Under the pieces are notes generated by a model, which had not been told where the DNA came from, ran no database searches, and worked only from the letters and a program-made list of their open reading frames with translations. A stretch of 64,000 bases of DNA from Alphaproteobacteria bacterium (GTDB taxonomy: Bacteria; Pseudomonadota; Alphaproteobacteria; RF32; CAG-239): assembly GCA_017935485.1 (NCBI GenBank), contig JAGBHO010000054.1, positions 67,126 to 131,125 on the forward strand, given 5' to 3'. Below, in pieces: positions 532 to 41,247 of the stretch; positions within the stretch are counted from its first letter, which is position 1, and each line of letters starts with the position of its first letter. A program made the position numbers and the translations under genes.

Positions 532-1119
532 TTATTTTTCTTCTTCGTCTTCTTCCGGCGGAATATAAGCCTTAATCTGCTGCCGTTGTTCGGGTTTCAT
601 GACCTTGTAGACAGCGGCGGCGTTTTTTTCGGCACCGGCAACTTTGAGGAAAATGGCCTGCTGGTAGAGGTTGAAAGCATGAACCAGATCTTGCGGAATG
701 CCGATACCGCGGGCATTCATCCAGGCATAAATCTCAACCGCATGCGGGTTGTTTTCGGCAACGCGAAGCAATATCTCGTCCAATTCCACCGGCGTAACAC
801 GGTTTTCCTTAACGGCGAGAACGGCATTTTCCCATTTGCGCTGACGGGCAATACGGGCTTCTTCTTCTATTTTGTATTTGTCAACCAGCGGAATCTGATA
901 AGGCGTGATTTTAGGATCTTCGGCTTTGATTGCCAGCGGAATTTCGGTAATGCCGTCTTCAATCAGAACATCTGGAATTTTGCGGTTTTTAACATAAAGC
1001 GGCAGGTAACCCTCGTTGTCGGATTTTACCAGATCACGGTAGATCTCGTCTAAACTGGTGCTGTGCGCCGGCTTGACGAACAAAAAGGCGAGAAGTGTTA
1101 AAAATGCCAGCTTTTTCAT
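532..1119 (-). CDS. secreted protein with a Sel1/TPR-like repeat, function unknown
   Basis: 195-aa ORF with signal peptide MKKLAFLTLLAFLFVKPAHS. The segment YAWMNARGIGIPQDLVHAFNLYQQA resembles a Sel1 repeat. Confidence 0.6.
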   Translation of the reverse strand: MKKLAFLTLLAFLFVKPAHSTSLDEIYRDLVKSDNEGYLPLYVKNRKIPDVLIEDGITEIPLAIKAEDPKITPYQIPLVDKYKIEEEARIARQRKWENAVLAVKENRVTPVELDEILLRVAENNPHAVEIYAWMNARGIGIPQDLVHAFNLYQQAIFLKVAGAEKNAAAVYKVMKPEQRQQIKAYIPPEEDEEEK

Positions 1120-1242
1120 TTTCTTTGTGTCTTTTTCCTTAATTTTATTGTAATACTACTCAAGACTTGTTACATATTAAAGCAATATTTATGACTTATA
1201 AACAAGGCGCAATATGATTTTATCCGGTTGTCGGGAGGCAAA

Positions 1243-2178
1243 ATGAGAAAGATTTATAATTCAATTACGGAAATGGTGGGGCATACGCCGCTGCTGAAAT
1301 TGTCCCGTCTGGCAAAAAAACATAAGCTGAAGGCAAAGCTTTTGGGAAAATGCGAGGCGTATAATCCGGTTTTTTCGGTCAAAGACCGTGTGGCCAAGCA
1401 AATGTTGGAAAATGCCGAGAAATCCGGTTTGGTGACCGAAGATACGGTTTTTGTGGAGGCGACGTCCGGCAATACCGGCATTGCGCTGGCGGCAATGAGC
1501 GCAGCCAAGGGATATAAGCTGGTGATTACCATGCCGGAGAATATGTCAAAAGAAAGGATTATGCTGATGCGTCTTTTCGGCACCGAGGTTATTCTGACAC
1601 CGGCGGAAGACGGAATGTCCGGCGCTATCGCCAAGGCTGACATGCTGGCAGAAAAAAATCCGAATGTGATTTTGCTGCGTCAGTTTGAAAACCCGGCGAA
1701 TCCGGAAGCGCATAAGCTGGGGACCGGAATTGAGATATTTGAAGATACCGGCGGGGAGGTCGATGCCGTTGTTATTGCCGTCGGAACGTCCGGAACGCTG
1801 AACGGCGTTGCTTCTACGCTGAAAAGTTATAATCCCGATTTGTATGTGGCGGCGGTTGAGCCGAAAAACAGTGCGGTTTTGAGCGGCGGGGATAAGGGCG
1901 CTCATAAAATTCCGGGAATCGGTGCCGGATTTGTACCGGTATTTTATGACGCTTCGCTGGTTGACGAGGTTTTTGACATTGCGGACGAAGCGGCGGCAGC
2001 AATGGCCAGAGAATGTGCACAGACAGAGGGGCTGCCGGTGGGAATTTCGGCCGGTGCGGCACTTTCCGCCGCTGCAGAACTCGGTCGGAGGGATGAGATG
2101 AAAGGCAAAACGATTGTCGTTATTCTGCCTGATGCGGCCGAGCGCTATCTTTCAACCGGATTATTGGAGCAGGACTAA
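1243..2178 (+). CDS. cysK: cysteine synthase A (O-acetylserine sulfhydrylase)
   Basis: ATG at 1243 is preceded by a GGGAGG SD; the track ORF begins at upstream TTG 1228. Contains the PLP-lysine motif SVKDR and the SGNTG loop. Confidence 0.93.
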   Translation: MRKIYNSITEMVGHTPLLKLSRLAKKHKLKAKLLGKCEAYNPVFSVKDRVAKQMLENAEKSGLVTEDTVFVEATSGNTGIALAAMSAAKGYKLVITMPENMSKERIMLMRLFGTEVILTPAEDGMSGAIAKADMLAEKNPNVILLRQFENPANPEAHKLGTGIEIFEDTGGEVDAVVIAVGTSGTLNGVASTLKSYNPDLYVAAVEPKNSAVLSGGDKGAHKIPGIGAGFVPVFYDASLVDEVFDIADEAAAAMARECAQTEGLPVGISAGAALSAAAELGRRDEMKGKTIVVILPDAAERYLSTGLLEQD

Positions 2179-2183
2179 AAATT

Positions 2184-3125
2184 ATGTTGTTTGATAAAGT
2201 TGCGATTATCGGCGTCGGATTAATCGGTTCGTCTCTGGCACGGGTTATCCGCCATAATCATTTGGCGAAAGTTATTACCGGTTTTGACAATAATCCGGAA
2301 TATCTTTGCAAAGCCAAAGAAATCGGCGTTATTGACGAAGCGTTCGAGAGTGCGGCCGGAGCGGCTGCCGATGCCGATTTGGTGGTTTTGGCAACACCGG
2401 TCGGAGCATATGGCGCGATTAGCGCCGAGATAGTGTCGGTGATGAAAAAAGGGGCGGTAATTACGGATGTTGGCTCGGTCAAAAAATATGCTGCTGCGGA
2501 AATCGAAAAACATATTCCGTCTGAAAGCGGGATTGTGTATGTTCCCGGACATCCGGTTGCCGGTACCGAAAAATCCGGTCCGGAAGCCGGATTTCTGGAA
2601 TTGTTTGAAGGGCGCTGGTGTATTTTGACGCCCGGAAAATTTGCAACGCCGGAAGCAACGGCAAAAGTTTCGGCAATGTGGCAGGCCGCAAAGATGAAAA
2701 TAGACACGATGACGCCGGAACATCATGACAAGGTTATGGCGGCGGTTTCGCATCTTCCGCACCTGATCGCCTTTTCCATTGTCGGAACGGTGGCTGATTT
2801 GGAAGGGTATGAAAAGCAGGAGATTATTAAATATTCGGCTTCCGGTTTTCGGGATTTTACCCGTATTGCCGGTTCCGATCCGACAATGTGGCGGGATATT
2901 CTGCTGAATAATAAAGAGACTATTCTGGAATTGATTCAGCGCTTTGTCGAGGATTTGATCGCATTGCAGCGCAATATCCGCTGGGATGAGGGCGATAGGC
3001 TGTTTGAACTTTTTTCGCGAACGCAGAAAATCCGTAAAGAAGTTATTGAAGCCAAGCAGGATCAGCCGGAAACCGAAAAGAAAATTCTGGCTGAACTCAG
3101 CCGTGAGAATAGTCTTGATAAATGA
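2184..3125 (+). CDS. tyrA: prephenate/arogenate (cyclohexadienyl) dehydrogenase
   Basis: 313 aa with N-terminal Rossmann motif IIGVGLIGSS and an HPVAGTEKSG core typical of the TyrA family. Confidence 0.88.
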   Translation: MLFDKVAIIGVGLIGSSLARVIRHNHLAKVITGFDNNPEYLCKAKEIGVIDEAFESAAGAAADADLVVLATPVGAYGAISAEIVSVMKKGAVITDVGSVKKYAAAEIEKHIPSESGIVYVPGHPVAGTEKSGPEAGFLELFEGRWCILTPGKFATPEATAKVSAMWQAAKMKIDTMTPEHHDKVMAAVSHLPHLIAFSIVGTVADLEGYEKQEIIKYSASGFRDFTRIAGSDPTMWRDILLNNKETILELIQRFVEDLIALQRNIRWDEGDRLFELFSRTQKIRKEVIEAKQDQPETEKKILAELSRENSLDK

Positions 3126-3173
3126 GAGATTATTTTATATTCTGAACAGAAATGAACTAGTGATTGGATAAAC

Positions 3174-4280
3174 ATGAACCCGCAGTCTATTCTTGGAAAA
3201 TATTTGACCAAACAGATTATTTACAATTTTTTGGCCGTCTTGCTGATGGTTATGGGGATTGTCATGCTGTTTGAAGTGGTTGAACTGCTGCGCCGCGCTT
3301 CCGGACGTGATGACGCTTCTTTCGGTTTTATTATGCAGATGGCTTTTACCAAGCTGCCCAAAACGGTTGAGATGGTTTTTCCGTTTGTGATGATGATTGC
3401 GGCGATGATTACTTTTTGGAAGCTCAGCAAAAGCAACGAGTTTGTGATTATCCGCAGTGCAGGTGTTTCAATCTGGGGGTTTTTGGCGCCGGTGTTGCTT
3501 GCAACTTTTTTAATCGGCGTGGTGAACGTGACGGTTGTGAATCCGATTTCCGCGCGAATGAACGAGCTGTATGAAACGTTGAATTATCGTTTTAAGACCC
3601 GTAACCCCAAAGCGGTTTTGTTTTCCGAAAAAGGATTGTGGCTGCGGGAAGCAATTGCTGCCGACAAGTTTCTTTATTTACAGGCAAAGTCCGTGCGTCA
3701 GGAACAAGACAGCCTTTTTTTACGCGGCGTGACGATTTTGGAAATGAACAGGGAATCGCAGAATTTGCGGCGGGTAGAGGCTTATGCCGCCAATCTGAAA
3801 GGCGATGAATTTGAGCTGATTAACGTTAAGGTTTACGAACCCGGAAAACCGACGCTTTCTCTCGATAAGGTTATGTATAAGACAACGTTGACGATTGAAC
3901 GGATTAAAGAGAATTTTGTGGAACCGGAATCTATTTCTTTTTGGGATTTGCCGGATACCATTCGTTTTTATGAAATGTCAGGCTTTTCGGCGCAAAAGCA
4001 CTGGCTGCGCTATCTTTCCCTGCTGGCTTCGCCCTTTTTGCTCTGTTCCATGGTTCTTGTTGCCGCCGTTTTTGCCCTGCGTCCGAACAACCGGCGGGGT
4101 GGGGTGATGTATCTGATTGTCGGCGGCCTTTCCACCGGTTTTATTGTTTATTTTATGTCGCAGGTTATTTATGCTTTCGGCGTTAACAATGTTATTCCCG
4201 GTTTTTTGGCGGTTTGGACGCCGGCGTTAATTGTGATGATGATTAGTGTGTCGGTTCTTCTCCATCTCGAAGACGGGTAA
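3174..4280 (+). CDS. LPS export ABC permease, LptF/LptG (YjgP/YjgQ) family
   Basis: 368 aa with three N-terminal TM segments, a large periplasmic loop and three C-terminal TM segments, as in LptF/LptG. I cannot tell F from G by eye. Confidence 0.85.
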   Translation: MNPQSILGKYLTKQIIYNFLAVLLMVMGIVMLFEVVELLRRASGRDDASFGFIMQMAFTKLPKTVEMVFPFVMMIAAMITFWKLSKSNEFVIIRSAGVSIWGFLAPVLLATFLIGVVNVTVVNPISARMNELYETLNYRFKTRNPKAVLFSEKGLWLREAIAADKFLYLQAKSVRQEQDSLFLRGVTILEMNRESQNLRRVEAYAANLKGDEFELINVKVYEPGKPTLSLDKVMYKTTLTIERIKENFVEPESISFWDLPDTIRFYEMSGFSAQKHWLRYLSLLASPFLLCSMVLVAAVFALRPNNRRGGVMYLIVGGLSTGFIVYFMSQVIYAFGVNNVIPGFLAVWTPALIVMMISVSVLLHLEDG

Positions 4281-4404
4281 AAACTGCGTATAATGGCCGA
4301 CTAATACAGATTTAGCGGGATGGAGAAATGCTCATGTACTATTTTGTACACTCCGCTTTCTCCACCCTAAAATCTTATTATTCGGCTCATTCTCCGCAGT
4401 TTTT
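4280..4404 (+). repeat. nested-palindrome element unit A1 (full 125-bp unit with outer arms)
   Basis: Outer arms TAAAAACTGCG / CGCAGTTTTTA, second arms cgTATAATGGccgac / tcggCTCATTCTCcg, then TAATACAGA-stem-core(CTCATGTAC..GTACACTCC)-stem-CTTATTAT. Starts at the last A of the TAA stop. Confidence 0.9.
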
Positions 4405-4429
4405 ATAAAAACCGCGCAATACGGACGCT

Positions 4430-4509
4430 TAATACAGAAAAAGAAAATCCGGCTAAGTTACGTACGTCTATGTACGTGCCTGTCGCCGGATTTTCTTTTT
4501 CTTATTATC
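4430..4509 (+). repeat. nested-palindrome element unit A2 (80-bp inner unit)
   Basis: TAATACAGA + agaaaaagaaaatccggc / gccggattttctttttct perfect 18-bp stem around the loop taagttacgtacgtctatgtacgtgcctgtc, then CTTATTAT. Confidence 0.9.
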
Positions 4510-4512
4510 CGT

Positions 4513-4575
4513 CTTAGGCATCCAGGCGCGCTGCGGTTGCTCACGCTTTCCTTGCTTGCCAAGATGTTCCAAAGA
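4513..4575 (+). repeat. 63-nt tail module of the element array (copy 1 of 2)
   Basis: cttaggcatccaggcgcgctgcggttgctcacgctttccttgcttgccaagatgttccaaaga. A near-identical copy lies at 44535..44597, and its 28-nt core recurs at 28121 and 28513. Confidence 0.85.
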
Positions 4576-4585
4576 GCTTGCAGAC

Positions 4586-4613
4586 AAAAACAACCGGAGC
4601 AGCGGTTGTTTTT
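4586..4613. terminator. bidirectional intrinsic terminator
   Basis: aaaaacaaccg-gagcag-cggttgttttt: 11-bp stem with an A-run and a T-run, between convergent genes. Confidence 0.7.
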
Positions 4614-4672
4614 ACTTAGCGCTTCTATCGCGTTTTTTACAGCGGCCTGAAAGGGAAGACAGTTATCGGATT

Positions 4673-6037
4673 TTATTCTTCCAGCAGATTCAGGCTTTGG
4701 CTGGTTTTGGCAATGTCGGCCGTGATTTTGCGGGTTTCTTCGATGTTATCGGCGTTTTCAAAAACATACAGGGCGTCGTGGAAATATTCCAGAGCTTCTT
4801 CGAGCAGGGCTTTATCACCGGCATTTTTTCCGAGCCGGTAATAGATTTCGCCGATATGTTCCTGACTCTTGGCCCATTCCAACGGTTTGCGGCGTTCGGT
4901 GATGACCTTTTGCTGGTTTTTATAGCTGGAAATTGCCAATTCCGAAATTTCTTCGCTTTTGGTGAAGTTGCCGAGAAGCCCCAGCATATAGCCTAACTCA
5001 CTTTGAATCTGTGCCCAGAATTCCGGAAATAAAGACAAGGTATAAATTTTTTCGGTTTCCCGCAGCTGAAAGACGGCATCACGCAACGCCTGAATATCTT
5101 CTTTGTACAGCCAGTAGCTTAAAAACAAGTGTGACAGTTTGTATGAAATATAACCATAGTCGTAAGGATAATTATATTTGCTCAGATAGCGCTGTGCCTG
5201 CCGGTAATAGTTGATTGCTTCTTTGAAGTGACGGGCAGATTGTTTGGGGATGTATTTTGTGGAACAGTCATATAATTGTCCGAGGTGGTTGTATATGCAT
5301 CCCAAATGGATTGGCGCGGTTATCAGATCCTGATGTTTTAAGGCCGTATCAAACAGGTTTTTGACAATTTTAAAATCTTTGCCCTGACCGCGGTCAAAAC
5401 AATAACTCAGGTAGATAATGCCCAGAAAATTCATGATGTAAGGCATGTATTCGATAGAAAGGTTTTTGGCCGAATCGTCTTTGGTCAAAAAGCTTATTAT
5501 CCTTTTGAGCAGGTATCTTTTTTGAATTTTTTTCTCGCGGGAAAAAGTGTTCAGCGAGCTTACAACCGCGCCGTAAATCAGGTTGCCTACAGCCGGCGGA
5601 ATCGGTTGTCCGGAAGAGAGAAGTTCTGCCGGAATATATAGGCTGTCAAGCAATGAAACAAAAGCGCAGTCTTCGTTTTCATATTGTTTTTCGGTTTGGA
5701 AATTGAGCCTGATTTTGCTGCCTTCGCGATAGCCCCAAATCAAAACATCGGCCTGTGTTTTATCCAAAATGGTTTGGCCGCGGTCAATGAGGTCAAAAAG
5801 TGTCCGGCTTTCCAGATTTAAAAAAGTTTTAGAAAAAGGTTCGTCAAAATAAGACACTTCCAGACCGTCTTTGCTGCTGAGCAGGCGGGCAATCACTTCA
5901 CCGCTGTTGCTTTCAATGTTTTCCGAGAATTCAACGACGACAACCTTGAACTTTATTAAGTCCATGGCATTTGCGGCCGGATTTATATGATCCGGATGAG
6001 AATGGAAAATTTTATGAACAAAATCTGTCAGCCGCAT
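4673..6037 (-). CDS. TPR-like repeat protein, function unknown
   Basis: 454 aa. Its start overlaps the stop of the upstream gene at 6037. The C-terminal half is helical TPR-like repeats with no catalytic motif seen. Confidence 0.7.
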   Translation of the reverse strand: MRLTDFVHKIFHSHPDHINPAANAMDLIKFKVVVVEFSENIESNSGEVIARLLSSKDGLEVSYFDEPFSKTFLNLESRTLFDLIDRGQTILDKTQADVLIWGYREGSKIRLNFQTEKQYENEDCAFVSLLDSLYIPAELLSSGQPIPPAVGNLIYGAVVSSLNTFSREKKIQKRYLLKRIISFLTKDDSAKNLSIEYMPYIMNFLGIIYLSYCFDRGQGKDFKIVKNLFDTALKHQDLITAPIHLGCIYNHLGQLYDCSTKYIPKQSARHFKEAINYYRQAQRYLSKYNYPYDYGYISYKLSHLFLSYWLYKEDIQALRDAVFQLRETEKIYTLSLFPEFWAQIQSELGYMLGLLGNFTKSEEISELAISSYKNQQKVITERRKPLEWAKSQEHIGEIYYRLGKNAGDKALLEEALEYFHDALYVFENADNIEETRKITADIAKTSQSLNLLEE

Positions 6038-27939: not shown

Positions 27940-28016
27940 GTACCCGTAGCTCAGTTGGATAGAGTATCGGCCTCCGACGCCGAGGGTCGTGGGTTCGAAT
28001 CCCTCCGGGTACGCCA
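27940..28016 (+). tRNA. tRNA-Arg (anticodon CCG)
   Basis: 77-nt cloverleaf folded by hand: acceptor gtacccg/cgggtac, D arm gctc-agttggata-gagt, anticodon arm tcggc-ctCCGac-gccga, T arm gtggg-ttcgaat-ccctc (one U-U mismatch), encoded CCA. Confidence 0.9.
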
Positions 28017-35853: not shown

Positions 35854-36008
35854 TTTTTTCTCTGAAAAATTTTTTATACCATATAAGATAATTACTGGCA
35901 TAAAATTATCAAGTCGGGAGTGCAACGGGGGATAAAAAGGTATGAATATGTCTATGCAAATCGGGAAGCGTTTTGACGCTGAACAAATTAATTTGCCGTT
36001 GCAGTTTC

Positions 36009-36039
36009 AAAAAAAATGCCGCATCAGCCGGATGCGGCA
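36009..36039 (-). terminator. intrinsic terminator
   Basis: tgccgcatc-agccg-gatgcggca, followed by T8 on the minus strand. Confidence 0.75.
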
Positions 36040-36070
36040 AGAGTGTTCGGTTTTGAGTCGGTGTCTATAT

Positions 36071-36685
36071 TTAGTCAGAAGAAAAATCCGCGCAGAATGA
36101 TCCGGTTTGTTCGTCACAAGAAACTTCCGTGCAGTTTCCGGCCCCGTCACAAGAAAGTTGCGTGCAGAACGGTTTGAGATGTTCATATGGAGAAATAGCC
36201 TGAAAATGTTGCAATATCAGTAGAAGAAATGGAGAGATAAGTGTCAGCGTAAAGATGATTTTGGCGCCGACAGTGGCTTTTTCTGTTGTTTGGGGGTGTT
36301 CTCTGGTGTCGCGTATTAAGATATAGAGGATATATAATCCTATTAAAAACTGAATTGCTCCTGCGGAGGGGTCGGGTAAAACAAAATCGATCCCCAAAGC
36401 GATTATATACAGCAGAGAAAGCGTCCAAATACTTTTGCCGGCATCATTGAAACGCCGGACTGTTATGGAAGCAACTGGGATCAGGCTGAAAAGCTGATAC
36501 AGAACGGATATAATAACTAAAGGGGGAAAAATAAAGATCCCTCCGATTAACAGGAGATGGAATAAGACGTTTATCAGCGTAAAGGACCAAAATTCTTTAC
36601 GCGGGGCATAACCCGAGATGTTAAAATAGTTACGAAAAGCGTTCAAATAAGATTGCCATATTCCGGGAGTATCAGAAACGGACAT
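36071..36685 (-). CDS. DUF805-domain membrane protein with extra TM segments and a Cys-rich C-terminal tail
   Basis: 204 aa. GYAPRKEFWSF and RRFNDAGKS (DUF805); tail CTQLSCDGAGNCTEVSCDEQTGSFC. Confidence 0.7.
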   Translation of the reverse strand: MSVSDTPGIWQSYLNAFRNYFNISGYAPRKEFWSFTLINVLFHLLLIGGIFIFPPLVIISVLYQLFSLIPVASITVRRFNDAGKSIWTLSLLYIIALGIDFVLPDPSAGAIQFLIGLYILYILIRDTREHPQTTEKATVGAKIIFTLTLISPFLLLILQHFQAISPYEHLKPFCTQLSCDGAGNCTEVSCDEQTGSFCADFSSD

Positions 36686-36822
36686 AATTTATCTCCTGTA
36701 AATATATTAATGTTGTCATGTATACTAAAAATTTGGAATGGGATGTCAACGTTTTTATTTCGGGAAAAAAGAAAGACCCTGCCAATTGATTTCGTCAGGG
36801 TCGGGTTTTACGGAGTTTATGA

Positions 36823-37151: not shown

Positions 37152-38141
37152 TTAGTACAAAAAGTTGGGTTCGGGGTAATTGTTTTTTAACAGGTCTAAC
37201 TTGAAACCTTCCTGAATGATTGATTCCATGATGTCGTGCAGTTGCAAATCACATTCGTAATTAATACGGTCGCCATTCAGATTTTCGCCGTCTTTTCGGG
37301 CTCTGGCGAGATCATAGCAGTAGTTATAAAAACTATCTGTAAGCTGGTTTACAAGAACGAAAGTTTCTTGTTGTTTGTTAAAAAGCGAATCAGACATGTG
37401 CTGATCCAACGTAGCGGCGATTGCTCCCTTAAAGCAGTTTGTTTTATAAGCTGAAGCGACTTGTAAAGAATCCAAGTCGTTAATGTCAGCGTTTTTGAAA
37501 CCGGCTTCCGTACATTCTTTGTTGACGGTTGCAGCGAGGTAGCTTGATATTTCGTTAATGTTACTGCTGTTATCCGCCGGTTTTTCAGGAAGTTCCGTGT
37601 CCGGCAGAGAGGTTTTCTCCGGGTAGGCTTCAATGTTTGTCTGATTGCGGAGAAGATTGTCGAGAAGTTTTATTATGATATAGCTGCTTTGGGGTTTGAA
37701 GTCCAGGGAGGCAGGCATATTGCATGTCGGCTGGCGATATTTGTTATATTCGGCCATATTGTAAAAAATGGTGTTTAAATCGCGTACGAAAGCAAAGCGC
37801 CAGCGATCAATTTTTGCACGTTTTGCAACGTTGGGAACGATTTTGCTTGTCTGAGAATCAAGTTCGTATAACAGACAGTCACGGGTTTGGACATTTTGGT
37901 GTTGTTTTTCTGACAATGTTTGAGCCGGAACTTTATGAGGATTATCAATGCAAGGCATTGCAAGATTGACAGCCTGTCTGAGACTGTCTTCGACATCTTT
38001 TGGAAGATTGACCGAATTATCCGGTGTTGCAAGCGTTGCGGCAGGTTGGCCGGAACGTTTATTGTAATATAAAGAGGCGACGATTGAAATGCAAGCGATT
38101 ATGATTGCGGCGGAAGAGGCGATGATGATTTTTTTGTTCAT
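37152..38141 (-). CDS. secreted or membrane-anchored hypothetical protein
   Basis: 329 aa with N-terminal hydrophobic segment IIIASSAAIIIACISIVASL and several Cys. Confidence 0.6.
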   Translation of the reverse strand: MNKKIIIASSAAIIIACISIVASLYYNKRSGQPAATLATPDNSVNLPKDVEDSLRQAVNLAMPCIDNPHKVPAQTLSEKQHQNVQTRDCLLYELDSQTSKIVPNVAKRAKIDRWRFAFVRDLNTIFYNMAEYNKYRQPTCNMPASLDFKPQSSYIIIKLLDNLLRNQTNIEAYPEKTSLPDTELPEKPADNSSNINEISSYLAATVNKECTEAGFKNADINDLDSLQVASAYKTNCFKGAIAATLDQHMSDSLFNKQQETFVLVNQLTDSFYNYCYDLARARKDGENLNGDRINYECDLQLHDIMESIIQEGFKLDLLKNNYPEPNFLY

Positions 38142-38221
38142 TGTGGTAATCCTGAAAATAAAACTTTAGATTATCATATTCCGCCGGCAAAAAAAGTCAA
38201 AGTTTTTTTGACGCGCAAAGA

Positions 38222-39007: not shown

Positions 39008-39036
39008 TTGACTTTTATACCCTGTCAGGGTATATT
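39008..39036 (+). promoter_or_regulatory. sigma70-like promoter of the metallothionein-csoR operon
   Basis: TTGACT (39008..39013), exact 17-nt spacer, TATATT (39031..39036). Confidence 0.55.
39016..39034. promoter_or_regulatory. perfect 19-bp palindrome, candidate CsoR-family operator 1
   Basis: TATACCCTG-T-CAGGGTATA, spanning the spacer and the -10 element. Confidence 0.55.
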
Positions 39037-39041
39037 GAGCT

Positions 39042-39056
39042 TACCCATAGGGGGTA
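39042..39056. promoter_or_regulatory. imperfect palindrome, candidate CsoR-family operator 2
   Basis: TACCCATAGGGGGTA, between the -10 and the SD. Confidence 0.45.
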
Positions 39057-39072
39057 TTGAAAGGAGAAAGTA

Positions 39073-39252
39073 ATGAGAAACTGTAACAATCCGAAATGCA
39101 AGAATCCGAATTGTACCTGCGGAGAGAACTGCAAATGTGACGAAACGCACCAATGCGGTGAGAACTGCGGATGCAATGAGCATTGCAGCTGCGGAGACGA
39201 TTGTCATTGTGACGAGACGCACAAATGCAGTGACAAATGTAACTGCAAATAA
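39073..39252 (+). CDS. metallothionein-like Cys/His-rich peptide (59 aa, not in the ORF track)
   Basis: Hand translation: MRNCNNPKCKNPNCTCGENCKCDETHQCGENCGCNEHCSCGDDCHCDETHKCSDKCNCK, with 16 Cys and 4 His. AAGGAG SD 6 nt upstream. The stop overlaps the SD of the next gene. Confidence 0.75.
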   Translation: MRNCNNPKCKNPNCTCGENCKCDETHQCGENCGCNEHCSCGDDCHCDETHKCSDKCNCK

Positions 39253-39263
39253 GGAGCAAGGTT

Positions 39264-39554
39264 ATGAGCAATGAACAAAATTTGCCGCATTCGCCATGCC
39301 ATGAGGCCGAACTTCCTCGTCTGAACCGGGTGCTCGGGCAATTGGAAGGCGTGAAAAAGATGATTGCGGAAAACCGGTATTGTCCCGAGATTTTGATTCA
39401 GCTTAAAGCCGTTCGTTCCGCAATCAAGGCTGTGGAAGGGAATATTCTGAAACGCCATTTGCAGTCTTGCGTTGCCCAGTCTTTTGACAATGAACAAGCC
39501 AAAGCGGAAAAAATTGAAGAATTGAAAATGTTGTTTGACCGTTTTGAGCAGTAA
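39264..39554 (+). CDS. csoR: CsoR/RcnR/FrmR-family metal-sensing transcriptional repressor
   Basis: 96 aa. C40, H65 and C69 have the 25/4 spacing of CsoR Cu(I) ligands. Extra HSPCH near the N-terminus. Confidence 0.85.
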   Translation: MSNEQNLPHSPCHEAELPRLNRVLGQLEGVKKMIAENRYCPEILIQLKAVRSAIKAVEGNILKRHLQSCVAQSFDNEQAKAEKIEELKMLFDRFEQ

Positions 39555-39561
39555 AAATATC

Positions 39562-39588
39562 GGGCTGTCTTTCCGGCAGCCCTTTTTT
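39562..39588 (+). terminator. intrinsic terminator after the csoR-like gene
   Basis: gggctg-tctttccgg-cagccc + T6. Confidence 0.75.
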
Positions 39589-39648
39589 ATTGATTCCATG
39601 GCCGGTCTTTGTTATAATACTGCTAAAGTATACAGCGGAGACAGTTTT

Positions 39649-41247
39649 ATGAGCAAGAATGCCAATAATCTTCCGAATGATGCCGTATTTCGTTTTTTAA
39701 AACGGGAATATGCCGGCTTTAATATGACGCCGCAGGTTGTGACAATTGACAACCGGCCGGTTGTTATTCCGTGTTTTTATATCAGAAGTTCATTGGAAGC
39801 CGGTGAGGCAAAAAAGAAGTTTGTCCGCGATTATTTCAGCCGCCAGTATCGGGATATTGCGCGTTATAAAGAAGCCGGACTGAAACCGCGTAAAATCGTG
39901 TTTAACGGCGGGACTTTCGTGGTACCGTTTGACGAGCGGGACAGCGACAAAAAAGACAGCGATATTGCGGCTGGAATTATGCGGTCGGCGTATCGGGATT
40001 ACCGGCGGGCTGCCGCTTATACGCAAAAGCTTAACGAATGCGGTATCGGACAGGGACGGCTGACCGAACTCGGATTGGACAATATTGAGAATATGGAAGA
40101 CGTTTACAACCGTTATCTTTGGGAAAAAGCTAAAGATAAGGCTGCAGCTTTTGGCGCTTTTATGGCAAAGGAGGCAAAGTCCGCTTACAACGGGGCGAAG
40201 ATTTTGTTGCAGCGCTCCGACAAGGCTCAGCGTATCAAAATCGGGGTAGATCGGTTTTGTCAGGCTTCCAGAAAAGCCGTTATCGGGGCGGCCCTGACCA
40301 CATTAACCCTGACCGGCGGATTGTATGCTCATCAGCAGCTGCAGGAAAAGCAAAAGGAAAAGGCAAAAGACAAGACCGAAAAGCCGGTGAAGGCAGAGAT
40401 TGGAACCGAAAAAGCTAAAACGGTTTTTATGCCCGAAGCTGCCCAGCCTGCAGAGGGGCAAAAGAGGATGCAGGCAAAGAAAAAGATTGTATCGGAGAAA
40501 AGGGCGGCCGTAAATAAAAAGGCGGAGCAGATCAAAGCCGGCATTGAAGAGAAGACATTGGAAAAAACAGCCGTAAAAAAAGGAAAACTGCCGCAGAAAA
40601 TCCGTGCGGAATACGGACTGGATGATGAAAAATTTCAACGTTTTATGGGAATTGTCTTCAAACATGAGGGCGGCTACCGCAATGTGTCATGGGATTATCC
40701 GACTCAGATGGGGATTACCAGCGTCACTTTGAAAAATTTTTGGAAGAATAATAAAAAGCTGGCGGAAGAACTTGATTTTCCGACTGCCGGAAATATTAAA
40801 AACCTGAACAAAGAGCAATGCGAGCTTATTTATAAAAAAGATTTTTATGATTATTACAGAATCGGCGATTTTAAGAACGAGAGCATTGCCTTATTGTTGT
40901 TTGACATTCGCGTGAACCATTCATCGAAGACGGCGGCGCAGATTATTGCCAACGGGATTTATGAGGCCAGAGGGCGCAAGAATGTGCGGCGGACGGACAA
41001 GATTGTGGAACTGGCGAACGGAATTGCCGGCAAAGCAAAAAACGAGCAGTATTTTTATGATCATATGGTAAAAGCGCGGATTGACTTTATTAATAAGCAC
41101 CATAAAAAAGGCGGAGAAAAAACAAATGATTATAACGGGCTGATGAACCGGGCCGGTAAATTTAAAGGGAAGTTTGTGGCAACGTCGCAGCAAAATAACA
41201 ATTTGAGACTGGCAATGTACGATGCCCGCGGAAGACAGGCAAAATGA
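39649..41247 (+). CDS. membrane-anchored protein with a C-terminal GH108-type lysozyme domain
   Basis: ATG at 39649 (GGAG SD; TATAAT at 39613). About 230 aa of unknown N-domain, TM AVIGAALTTLTLTGGLY, a Lys/Glu-rich linker, then FKHEGGYRNV...QMGIT (GH108 EGGY motif). Confidence 0.7.
   Translation: MSKNANNLPNDAVFRFLKREYAGFNMTPQVVTIDNRPVVIPCFYIRSSLEAGEAKKKFVRDYFSRQYRDIARYKEAGLKPRKIVFNGGTFVVPFDERDSDKKDSDIAAGIMRSAYRDYRRAAAYTQKLNECGIGQGRLTELGLDNIENMEDVYNRYLWEKAKDKAAAFGAFMAKEAKSAYNGAKILLQRSDKAQRIKIGVDRFCQASRKAVIGAALTTLTLTGGLYAHQQLQEKQKEKAKDKTEKPVKAEIGTEKAKTVFMPEAAQPAEGQKRMQAKKKIVSEKRAAVNKKAEQIKAGIEEKTLEKTAVKKGKLPQKIRAEYGLDDEKFQRFMGIVFKHEGGYRNVSWDYPTQMGITSVTLKNFWKNNKKLAEELDFPTAGNIKNLNKEQCELIYKKDFYDYYRIGDFKNESIALLLFDIRVNHSSKTAAQIIANGIYEARGRKNVRRTDKIVELANGIAGKAKNEQYFYDHMVKARIDFINKHHKKGGEKTNDYNGLMNRAGKFKGKFVATSQQNNNLRLAMYDARGRQAK

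Follow-up and report, generated by a model that had tools for sequence, protein, structure and literature searches.

A conserved metallothionein-like peptide gene paired with a CsoR-family regulator in uncultured gut bacteria: a candidate self-repressed metal-buffering module

That a dedicated sensor can derepress a cytosolic metal sponge is already known from the RicR-MymT and SmtB-SmtA systems. In Mycobacterium tuberculosis, the small, Cys-rich, cytosolic and copper-binding metallothionein MymT is controlled by the CsoR-family Cu(I) repressor RicR (PMC11672702). Cytosolic Cu(I) sequestration by a Cys-rich protein has also been described for bacterial Csp3 (PMC5171941), and bacterial metallothioneins are still regarded as few (PMC13578184). 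Here, we analyzed a stretch of 64,000 nucleotides (hereafter "the window"; positions 67,126 to 131,125 of contig JAGBHO010000054.1, assembly GCA_017935485.1) from an uncultured alphaproteobacterium, in which a metallothionein-like gene directly precedes a gene for a CsoR-family repressor. An earlier interpretation of this locus made from its letters without database searches (hereafter "the sequence-only reading") had drawn attention to the pair. Our follow-up suggests that the two genes are a self-repressed metal-buffering module, a reading that we consider likely, with Cu(I) as the most probable metal.

The peptide gene encodes MRNCNNPKCKNPNCTCGENCKCDETHQCGENCGCNEHCSCGDDCHCDETHKCSDKCNCK, a product of 59 amino acids with 16 Cys (positions 4, 9, 14, 16, 20, 22, 28, 32, 34, 38, 40, 44, 46, 52, 56 and 58) and 4 His (positions 26, 37, 45 and 50) that contains neither aromatic (F/W/Y) nor aliphatic (A/V/L/I) residues. 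Cysteine thus makes up 27% of the peptide (16/59), arranged in six CxC and five CxxxC motifs, and among the 825 stop-to-stop open reading frames (ORFs) of at least 40 amino acids in the window this one is the Cys-richest (25% vs 14% for the runner-up and a median of 2.6%). The sequence-only reading had given the extent of this 59-codon ORF and its Cys and His counts exactly. The short internal repeat that it had described is present but larger than stated, spanning 15 residues (CTCGENCKCDETHQC at 14-28 and the similar CSCGDDCHCDETHKC at 38-52) with 35 of 45 nucleotides identical, and the peptide can be written as two copies of a CxCGxxCxCDETHxC unit. Its size lies within the range expected of metallothioneins (59 amino acids, under ca. 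10 kDa), and the small members of its family are 37 to 74 amino acids long with a median Cys content of 27% (range 20-31%) and an aromatic residue in just 1 of 55 members. An AlphaFold model of the peptide has no secondary structure at a mean pLDDT (the program's own per-residue confidence measure) of 58.9, which says only that there is no metal-free fold. By composition, the peptide is therefore metallothionein-like and would be expected to bind metal.

The ORF is a genuine conserved coding gene, as the sequence-only reading had proposed. In a codon alignment of the window gene with 10 orthologs from related gut Alphaproteobacteria, all 16 Cys columns are kept while TGT and TGC are freely swapped, and the ratio of nonsynonymous to synonymous divergence (pN/pS) is 0.03-0.20, with pN at 0.01-0.19 and pS near saturation (up to ca. 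1). Purifying selection on the amino acid sequence reaches well past the Cys codons, differences in length between orthologs are whole codons, and an AGGAG-type Shine-Dalgarno sequence stands ahead of nearly all homologs. Taken together, the kept Cys columns, low pN/pS, whole-codon indels and Shine-Dalgarno sequences rule out a chance ORF, and the same coding conservation makes a role as nothing more than a leader peptide less likely.

With a small alignment of the peptide as query, a scan in six frames of one genome per GTDB species identified relatives in 95 of these species genomes, almost all of them metagenome-assembled genomes (MAGs) from human, mouse, rabbit or ruminant gut. From these we retrieved and analyzed 80 loci, of which 63 carry small stand-alone peptide ORFs, mostly in uncultured Alphaproteobacteria and in Candidatus Gastranaerophilales (Melainabacteria). 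The conserved core of the family is the N-terminal half of the peptide, C-N-N-P-K-C-K-N-P-N-C-T-C-G-D-N-C-x-C-D-E-x-H-Q-C, and the Gastranaerophilales peptides are mostly free of His. The DNA of the window is 89-92% identical to that of MGYG-HGUT-04444 and MGBC133411, in which the order of the pirin gene, the peptide gene, csoR and a GH108-domain gene is kept.

In the window, the csoR start codon at 39264 lies 11 nt past the stop of the peptide gene, and the gap contains neither promoter nor terminator (Table 1). We infer from this gap and its signals that the two genes are co-transcribed, and since the peptide stop overlaps the ribosome-binding site of csoR, they are probably translationally coupled. 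These details of the layout (an AAGGAG sequence 6 nt upstream of the peptide gene, the overlap of its TAA with a second AAGGAG and the terminator that closes the pair) had all been placed correctly from the letters, and the pairing itself recurs well beyond this genome in two phyla. In 39 of the 63 small-peptide loci, the next gene downstream in the same orientation is a csoR (phmmer E 3e-57 to 7e-28), mostly after a gap of ≤25 nt. Around 30 of these paired loci are labelled as alpha- or proteobacterial (including one Azospirillum and one Pseudomonadota), and 9 as Gastranaerophilales or unassigned. Their flanks vary by lineage, with an alpha-amylase and a CYTH gene in L007-L010 vs pirin and GH108 in the window, and between the two phyla the regulators share 59% identity, a level of similarity that hints at horizontal exchange of the pair between Alphaproteobacteria and Gastranaerophilales. 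Some Gastranaerophilales-type loci have a terminator-like hairpin between the two genes (e.g., L099), which would make the strict bicistron an alphaproteobacterial trait.

The strongest regulatory evidence, and one that goes beyond the sequence-only reading, as does the breadth of the family, is found ahead of the peptide gene, where two CsoR boxes of canonical form accompany a sigma-70 promoter. The promoter scan detected TTGACT-17-TATATT at 39008-39036 (10/12 matches), and the boxes O1 and O2 (Table 1) are the sole TACCC-N3-7-GGGTA sites in 64 kb, compared with an expectation of 0.08 and with fewer than two in each of 100 shuffled sequences. O1 agrees exactly in form with the CsoR box of Bradyrhizobium liaoningense, TATACCCnnnnnGGGTATA, and that box, too, overlaps a -10 element (PMC5057107). 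Both sites also fit the TAC-N9-GTA rule of the CsoR proteins of Streptomyces lividans, Staphylococcus aureus, Listeria monocytogenes and Bacillus subtilis, in which one box takes two tetramers and the TAC/GTA bases are essential (PMC3902906). Among the csoR-linked promoters, the one in the window included, 40 of 40 contain at least one TAC-N9-GTA box and 25 contain two or more, the second being located 24-35 bp downstream of the first in all but one of these 25. Of 38 related promoters, 36 have a TTGAC-type hexamer that starts 8-10 nt before their first operator. The conserved boxes thus sit where a bound repressor would have to block RNA polymerase. The strict box has only two further occurrences across the 460 kb of related loci, in the promoter of an exporter gene (L081, see below) and within a tRNA-Ser gene (L044), where we rejected it as a chance match. 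A riboswitch or attenuator was also rejected, because the fold of the 5′ untranslated region (5′UTR) is not significant (z = -0.48); Rfam models run over the window matched only a tRNA at 27940-28013 and nothing at this locus.

The 96-residue regulator was recognized from the letters as a member of the CsoR/RcnR family with Cu(I)-type ligands, and both assignments stand. Its PF02583 match (E 2.9e-25) scores 88.9 bits against a cut-off of 22.8, its top PDB matches are Cu(I)-CsoR 4m1p (3.8e-14) and InrS 5fmn (7.1e-14), followed by 7mq1, 4adz, 2hh7, 3aai and 5lcy, and in the alignments its residues C40, H65 and C69 fall on the Cu(I) ligands of Geobacillus thermodenitrificans CsoR (4m1p) and on their InrS counterparts. 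Across 39 unique peptide-linked regulators, on which all counts of invariance are based, Y39, C40, H65, C69, E86 and R19-x-N21-R22 (R19-L-N-R22 in the window) are invariant in 39/39. The last corresponds to the RLXR motif by which helix alpha-1 of CsoR binds DNA (PMC3902906). Cu(I)-sensing CsoR proteins are marked by an x-C-H-C ligand set and by a Tyr and a Glu that hardly vary (PMC11672702), and Tyr39, just before the Cys at the X position, and Glu86 are the second-shell residues of Cu(I)-CsoR, whereas InrS has Pro at the Tyr site. Because its Z residue is Cys, the regulator is not RcnR-like, and NCBIfam equivalog models remained far under their cut-offs (RicR 58.5 vs 175, FrmR 34.5 vs 133 and RcnR 34.5 vs 138 bits), so that it is not an ortholog of any of these named sensors. 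Just ahead of helix alpha-1, Pro11-x-His13 is likewise invariant in 39/39 regulators, often as H-P-x-H, and this additional motif appears to set them apart as a clade. The sequence-only reading had suggested that the HSPCH near the N-terminus could shift specificity toward Ni/Co, which is upheld only partly. Of this H9-S-P-C12-H13 string, Pro11 and His13 proved general, but His9 is found in only 7/39 and Cys12 in 14/39 regulators, and the invariant Tyr39/Glu86 pair is of the Cu type. The canonical W position (ca. residue 8-9) is variable across the 39 regulators, and the invariant His13 is offset from it by 5 residues.

We propose that the sigma-70 promoter would drive a single transcript of ca. 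540 nt that encodes the 59-residue peptide followed by the CsoR-family repressor. Without metal, CsoR tetramers bound to O1 (between -35 and -10) and O2 (at the start site) would block RNA polymerase. A rise of a thiophilic metal in the cytosol, most probably Cu(I), would then lead to its binding by the inter-subunit site of Cys40/His65′/Cys69′, coupled via Tyr39 and Glu86 to release of the metal-bound repressor from DNA. The peptide could thereby become abundant and, having no hydrophobic core, fold around metal-thiolate clusters formed by its 16 Cys (and perhaps its 4 His too) and sequester the metal, until co-expressed CsoR would re-close the promoter as free metal drops, in a negative and self-limiting loop. 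That the operon is repressed and derepressed, that the peptide binds metal and which metal this is are inferences from the features described above.

Table 1. Coordinates of the features of the peptide-csoR locus in the window.
Feature	Coordinates	Strand	Details
-35 hexamer TTGACT	39008..39013	+	promoter scan
Putative operator O1, TATACCCTGTCAGGGTATA	39016..39034	.	core TAC-N9-GTA 39018-39032; fills -35/-10 spacer and overlaps -10
-10 hexamer TATATT	39031..39036	+	first four bases within O1
Putative operator O2, TTACCCATAGGGGGTAT	39041..39057	.	core 39042-39056; over predicted start; 24 bp centre-to-centre from O1
Shine-Dalgarno AAGGAG of peptide gene	39061..39066	+	6 nt ahead of ATG
Metallothionein-like gene	39073..39252	+	ATG 39073, TAA 39250-39252; 59 aa
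Shine-Dalgarno AAGGAG of csoR	39251..39256	+	overlaps peptide TAA
CsoR-family repressor gene	39264..39554	+	96 aa; PF02583
Intrinsic terminator	39562..39592	+	8-bp stem (39562-39582), 6 G-C pairs, 5-nt loop, then TTTTTTATTG (TTTTTT)

Our assignment of the metal is built from motifs and gene neighborhoods. Cu(I) is favored by the x-C-H-C and Tyr/Glu signature, by the type of operator and by the contexts of distant members of the H-P-x-H clade, and on balance we lean toward it as the inducer. One of these distant members, a csoR homolog with 51% identity (in L103), lies in divergent orientation to genes for a multicopper oxidase and a MauE-like protein, and others share operons with periplasmic proteins carrying a heavy-metal-associated (HMA) domain. 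Zn/Cd or Ni/Co, taken together, are possible inducers of distinctly lower probability, and what probability remains falls to mixed or other inducers. Several points weigh against copper or against the module as such. The 64-kb window contains no copA, copZ, P-type ATPase or HMA protein gene, so that the customary neighborhood of a Cu-sensing csoR is missing, and no P-type ATPase or HMA gene stands beside any csoR-linked pair. The pairing is not obligatory, since csoR is not adjacent in 24 of the 63 small-peptide loci, most of which lack the operator as well, and the carriers of the peptide-csoR pair are all uncultured. At the regulator, the invariant N-terminal His13 is unexpected for x-C-H-C copper sensors, and the Ni sensor InrS is an equally good PDB match. 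At the peptide, His26 is invariant in alphaproteobacterial members, and histidine is commoner in Zn-thioneins. One locus (L081), which has a peptide gene with its own box and no adjacent csoR, carries an identical CsoR box, ATACCCATTGTGGGTAT, at ca. 1557-1573 beside a TTGACA hexamer in the promoter of a cation diffusion facilitator (CDF) exporter gene. This exporter (612-1538, minus strand; PF01545 and ZT_dimer, the zinc-transporter dimerization domain) has a His-rich N-terminus and belongs to a class that moves divalent cations, not Cu(I), a hint that a pump for divalent cations might belong to the regulon. Finally, a response not only to Cu but also to Zn and Cd is described for an alphaproteobacterial CsoR of the C-H-C type that has this box (PMC5057107).

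Much of this evidence can be read in favor of an alternative in which the architecture is unchanged but the metal sensed and buffered is divalent (Zn/Cd or Ni/Co), with His13 as a fourth, "W"-type ligand that would make the site H-C-H-C like that of InrS. We regard this alternative as rather unlikely, given that Tyr39 and Glu86, the allosteric pair of Cu(I) sensors, are invariant where InrS has Pro at the Tyr site, that the Gastranaerophilales peptides mostly do without the His conserved in their alphaproteobacterial relatives, and that distant clade members stand beside multicopper oxidase and HMA proteins. The spacing also argues against it: His13 is located only 27 residues ahead of Cys40, while the W ligand of RcnR and InrS lies 32 residues ahead of the Cys and would correspond to the variable residues 8-9 here. 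That the peptide instead uses its many thiols against a non-metal stress (persulfide, reactive sulfur, electrophile or oxidant), as a scavenger under the control of a CstR- or FrmR-like regulator, seems very improbable to us. The CsoR superfamily does include persulfide (CstR) and formaldehyde (FrmR) sensors (PMC11672702), and at 27% Cys the peptide would be reactive toward these compounds in the sulfide-rich gut, but CstR has an x-C-N/x-C and FrmR a P-C-H-x ligand pattern against the C-H-C with invariant His65 and Tyr/Glu here, the FrmR model stayed far below its cut-off as noted above, and sulfurtransferase and aldehyde-detoxifying genes are absent nearby. The ORF is short and overlaps the ribosome-binding site of csoR, as a Cys-codon-rich leader (an upstream ORF) tuning csoR translation might, and Cys-rich precursors of ribosomally synthesized and post-translationally modified peptides (RiPPs) exist. 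We nevertheless rejected both of these readings and give them hardly any credence in view of the strong purifying selection on amino acids beyond the Cys codons, the loci in which the peptide gene stands without csoR, the terminator-like hairpin that parts the two genes in L099, the lack of an attenuator structure in the 11-nt gap or the 5′UTR, and the lack of flanking radical-SAM, cyclase or protease genes.

Beyond a self-repressed module for Cu(I), the observations could be joined in a broader picture that we put forward as doubtful in its entirety. The pair would be a minimal, horizontally exchanged cassette of sensor plus sponge, confined to host-associated anaerobes, that replaces efflux as their main defense against soft metals. 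Its regulators would be a new CsoR clade (H-P-x-H ... C-H-C) with His13 as fourth ligand and a novel specificity, e.g., for Zn/Cd, and grafts of the CxCGxxCxC repeat onto GrpE, ferredoxin and surface proteins in other gut bacteria would mark a wider and so far unrecognized metal-handling system of the gut microbiome. A Zn/Cd-type specificity given by His13 would explain the CDF exporter target in L081.

Among the distant relatives of the regulator, the csoR and oxidase cluster of L103 (180-2696) adjoins a Tn3-family transposase and may be a mobile copper-resistance unit. In a set of marine and environmental loci (L095-L098 and L102; e.g., L096 1548-3197), a csoR of the H-P-x-H type is the last gene of an operon behind TTGACAtcATACCCCTATGGGGTAT, preceded in order by an unknown 216-residue protein, a periplasmic HMA protein and a membrane protein of 120 amino acids with a Cys-Cys pair in its first helix that looks MerT/MerF-like by eye. 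Among the peptide loci without csoR, a short sub-family (42-49 amino acids with a CCC end; L047, L051, L054-L056, L058, L060, L061 and L001-L006) has no CsoR box either. It is always followed by a 232-residue CTP_transf_1-like membrane protein and has a conserved ACTTGCTTAT motif ahead of the peptide gene; L001-L006 (peptide gene at 4001-4144) additionally carry a divergent unknown gene for 77 amino acids. The neighbors in the csoR-less sub-families (CTP_transf_1-like, the 77-residue product and Cys-rich secreted proteins) gave no regulatory clue.

The repeat module itself is also found outside stand-alone peptides. In MAGs of gut Clostridia, Bacilli and Erysipelotrichaceae, CxCG(D/E)xCxC repeats form an N-terminal extension of 50-100 residues on the co-chaperone GrpE (L062, L065, L068, L070, L072, L073, L079, L080, L083, L084 and L090; ORFs at ca. 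2950-3680), and the GrpE domain (PF01025) was confirmed for L062 and L070. Such a Cys-rich, metallothionein-like GrpE is unusual. Other fusions (L088 2791-3132; L077 2119-3255; L067, L069 and L075), including ones from Akkermansia and Gastranaerophilales, place the module C-terminal to a 4Fe-4S ferredoxin domain, inside an LPXTG-anchored vWA surface protein or in secreted proteins with signal peptides. In L091, a peptide of 55 amino acids with the same repeat (CTCGENCQCGADCQC..., 2983-3150) is directly followed by an HMA-domain P1B-type ATPase (3306-5630), and this locus has neither a CsoR box nor a csoR.

In the window, two segments just upstream of the pirin gene (35946-36806 and 37157-38220) have no counterpart in L014 and L016, the closest relatives, whose DNA is 89-92% identical and collinear apart from this, and look like strain-specific insertions. 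Their ORFs encode a membrane protein of 204 amino acids (36071-36685) and a protein of 329 amino acids with a signal-like N-terminus (37152-38141). The gene after the terminator (39649-41247) has its own promoter (TTGATT-17-TATAAT at 39590-39618) and encodes 532 amino acids with a long Lys/Ala-rich N-terminal part and a lysozyme-like GH108 domain at 335-424, and it is outside the metal module.

The sequence-only reading had known of no described pair or peptide family of this kind, and both indeed appear undescribed so far. With the window peptide, the best Pfam model was Metallothio_5 (E 0.24, 12 bits vs a cut-off of 25) and Metallothio_Pro did not match. Over the 55 members, the best Pfam hits were sub-threshold and to animal families (E 0.0027 and 0.045), NCBIfam models returned no match for the peptide, and neither did a PDB profile search. 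A tblastn search against plasmids and phages also gave no match, though its low-complexity filter may hide some, and such filters may conceal further peptide relatives beyond the 95 species of the six-frame scan. The peptide's motif strings were nowhere to be found in a literature search, and searches on CsoR together with metallothioneins led to work on RicR/MymT and to reviews, with no pair of this kind in the papers listed. A collection of 5.8 billion protein clusters does not contain the window peptide itself; in it, a single-sequence search returned 7 relatives, and a profile of the 55 members matched 16 called proteins. An exhaustive HMMER pass over 1.84 billion representatives matched 8. 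The matching called proteins have no functional name, "hypothetical protein" being the sole one recorded. With only 8 and 16 called proteins, protein databases are unfit for mapping the family, for which the six-frame genome scan worked. One reason for this is a systematic annotation error: csoR calls are often 137-154 amino acids long (P0036-P0039 and P0058-P0064) as they extend upstream in another frame across the peptide gene (e.g., P0039), and in L099-L101 (4690-5000) the uncalled peptide ORF is hidden in an "intergenic" gap of 310 nt.

The family would add a sequence-unrelated group from ca. 95 species of abundant uncultured gut lineages to the metallothioneins, one that protein databases have almost entirely missed. 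It also prompts one to ask how gut anaerobes with reduced genomes deal with copper or zinc from the diet or the host when the operon has no obvious pump, and the module, which in ca. 540 bp combines two operators with a repressor and a sponge, could be used as a small part for metal biosensing or sequestration. While the principle itself is not new and the evidence presented here is computational, we see its relevance for the fields of metal homeostasis and microbiome research.

Of the described systems, RicR-MymT is functionally closest in that a sponge would be derepressed when metal rises. The mymT gene is monocistronic and not adjacent to ricR, whereas here sensor and sponge apparently share one autoregulated operon, and this in Alphaproteobacteria and Melainabacteria. 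MymT and our peptide appear unrelated (hhalign probability 2.5% against a manually entered MymT sequence). The SmtB-SmtA and BmtA systems of cyanobacteria and pseudomonads resemble the locus in combining a metallothionein of similar size with a dedicated, adjacent metal-sensing repressor, but SmtB is a Zn-responsive member of the ArsR/SmtB family whose gene is divergent from smtA, and SmtA has a zinc-finger-like fold, aromatic residues and ca. 16% Cys. Comparison of SmtA with the peptide gave an hhalign probability of 0.4% (SmtA, too, entered manually), in line with the absence of a Metallothio_Pro match.

The copZ/copA operons controlled by CsoR (those of B. subtilis and S. lividans, copZ-csoR-copA of Thermus thermophilus and csoR-cueA of B. 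liaoningense) share with the window locus the repressor type with x-C-H-C, Tyr/Glu and RLXR, autoregulation, co-expression of a small metal-binding protein with csoR, and a TAC-N9-GTA or TATACCC-N5-GGGTATA box over the promoter. Their cargo is a chaperone and an efflux ATPase, whereas the operon described here is pump-free with a Cys-rich peptide, and its regulator has the additional invariant P-x-H motif in its N-terminus. InrS, the Ni(II) sensor of Synechocystis, is a near-equal match to the regulator with a C-H-C core and an N-terminal His, though it has Pro at the site of Tyr39 and controls a Ni exporter rather than a metallothionein, and its W His presumably aligns 5 residues upstream of His13. 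Csp3, the other cytosolic Cys-rich protein considered above, is a four-helix-bundle tetramer with >100 amino acids per chain, whereas the peptide has no predicted helices or hydrophobic core. Judged from its sequence features, what is new in this locus would thus be a peptide outside the known metallothionein sequence families, a compact and pump-free operon of sensor and sponge, and a clade of CsoR-family regulators marked by P-x-H.

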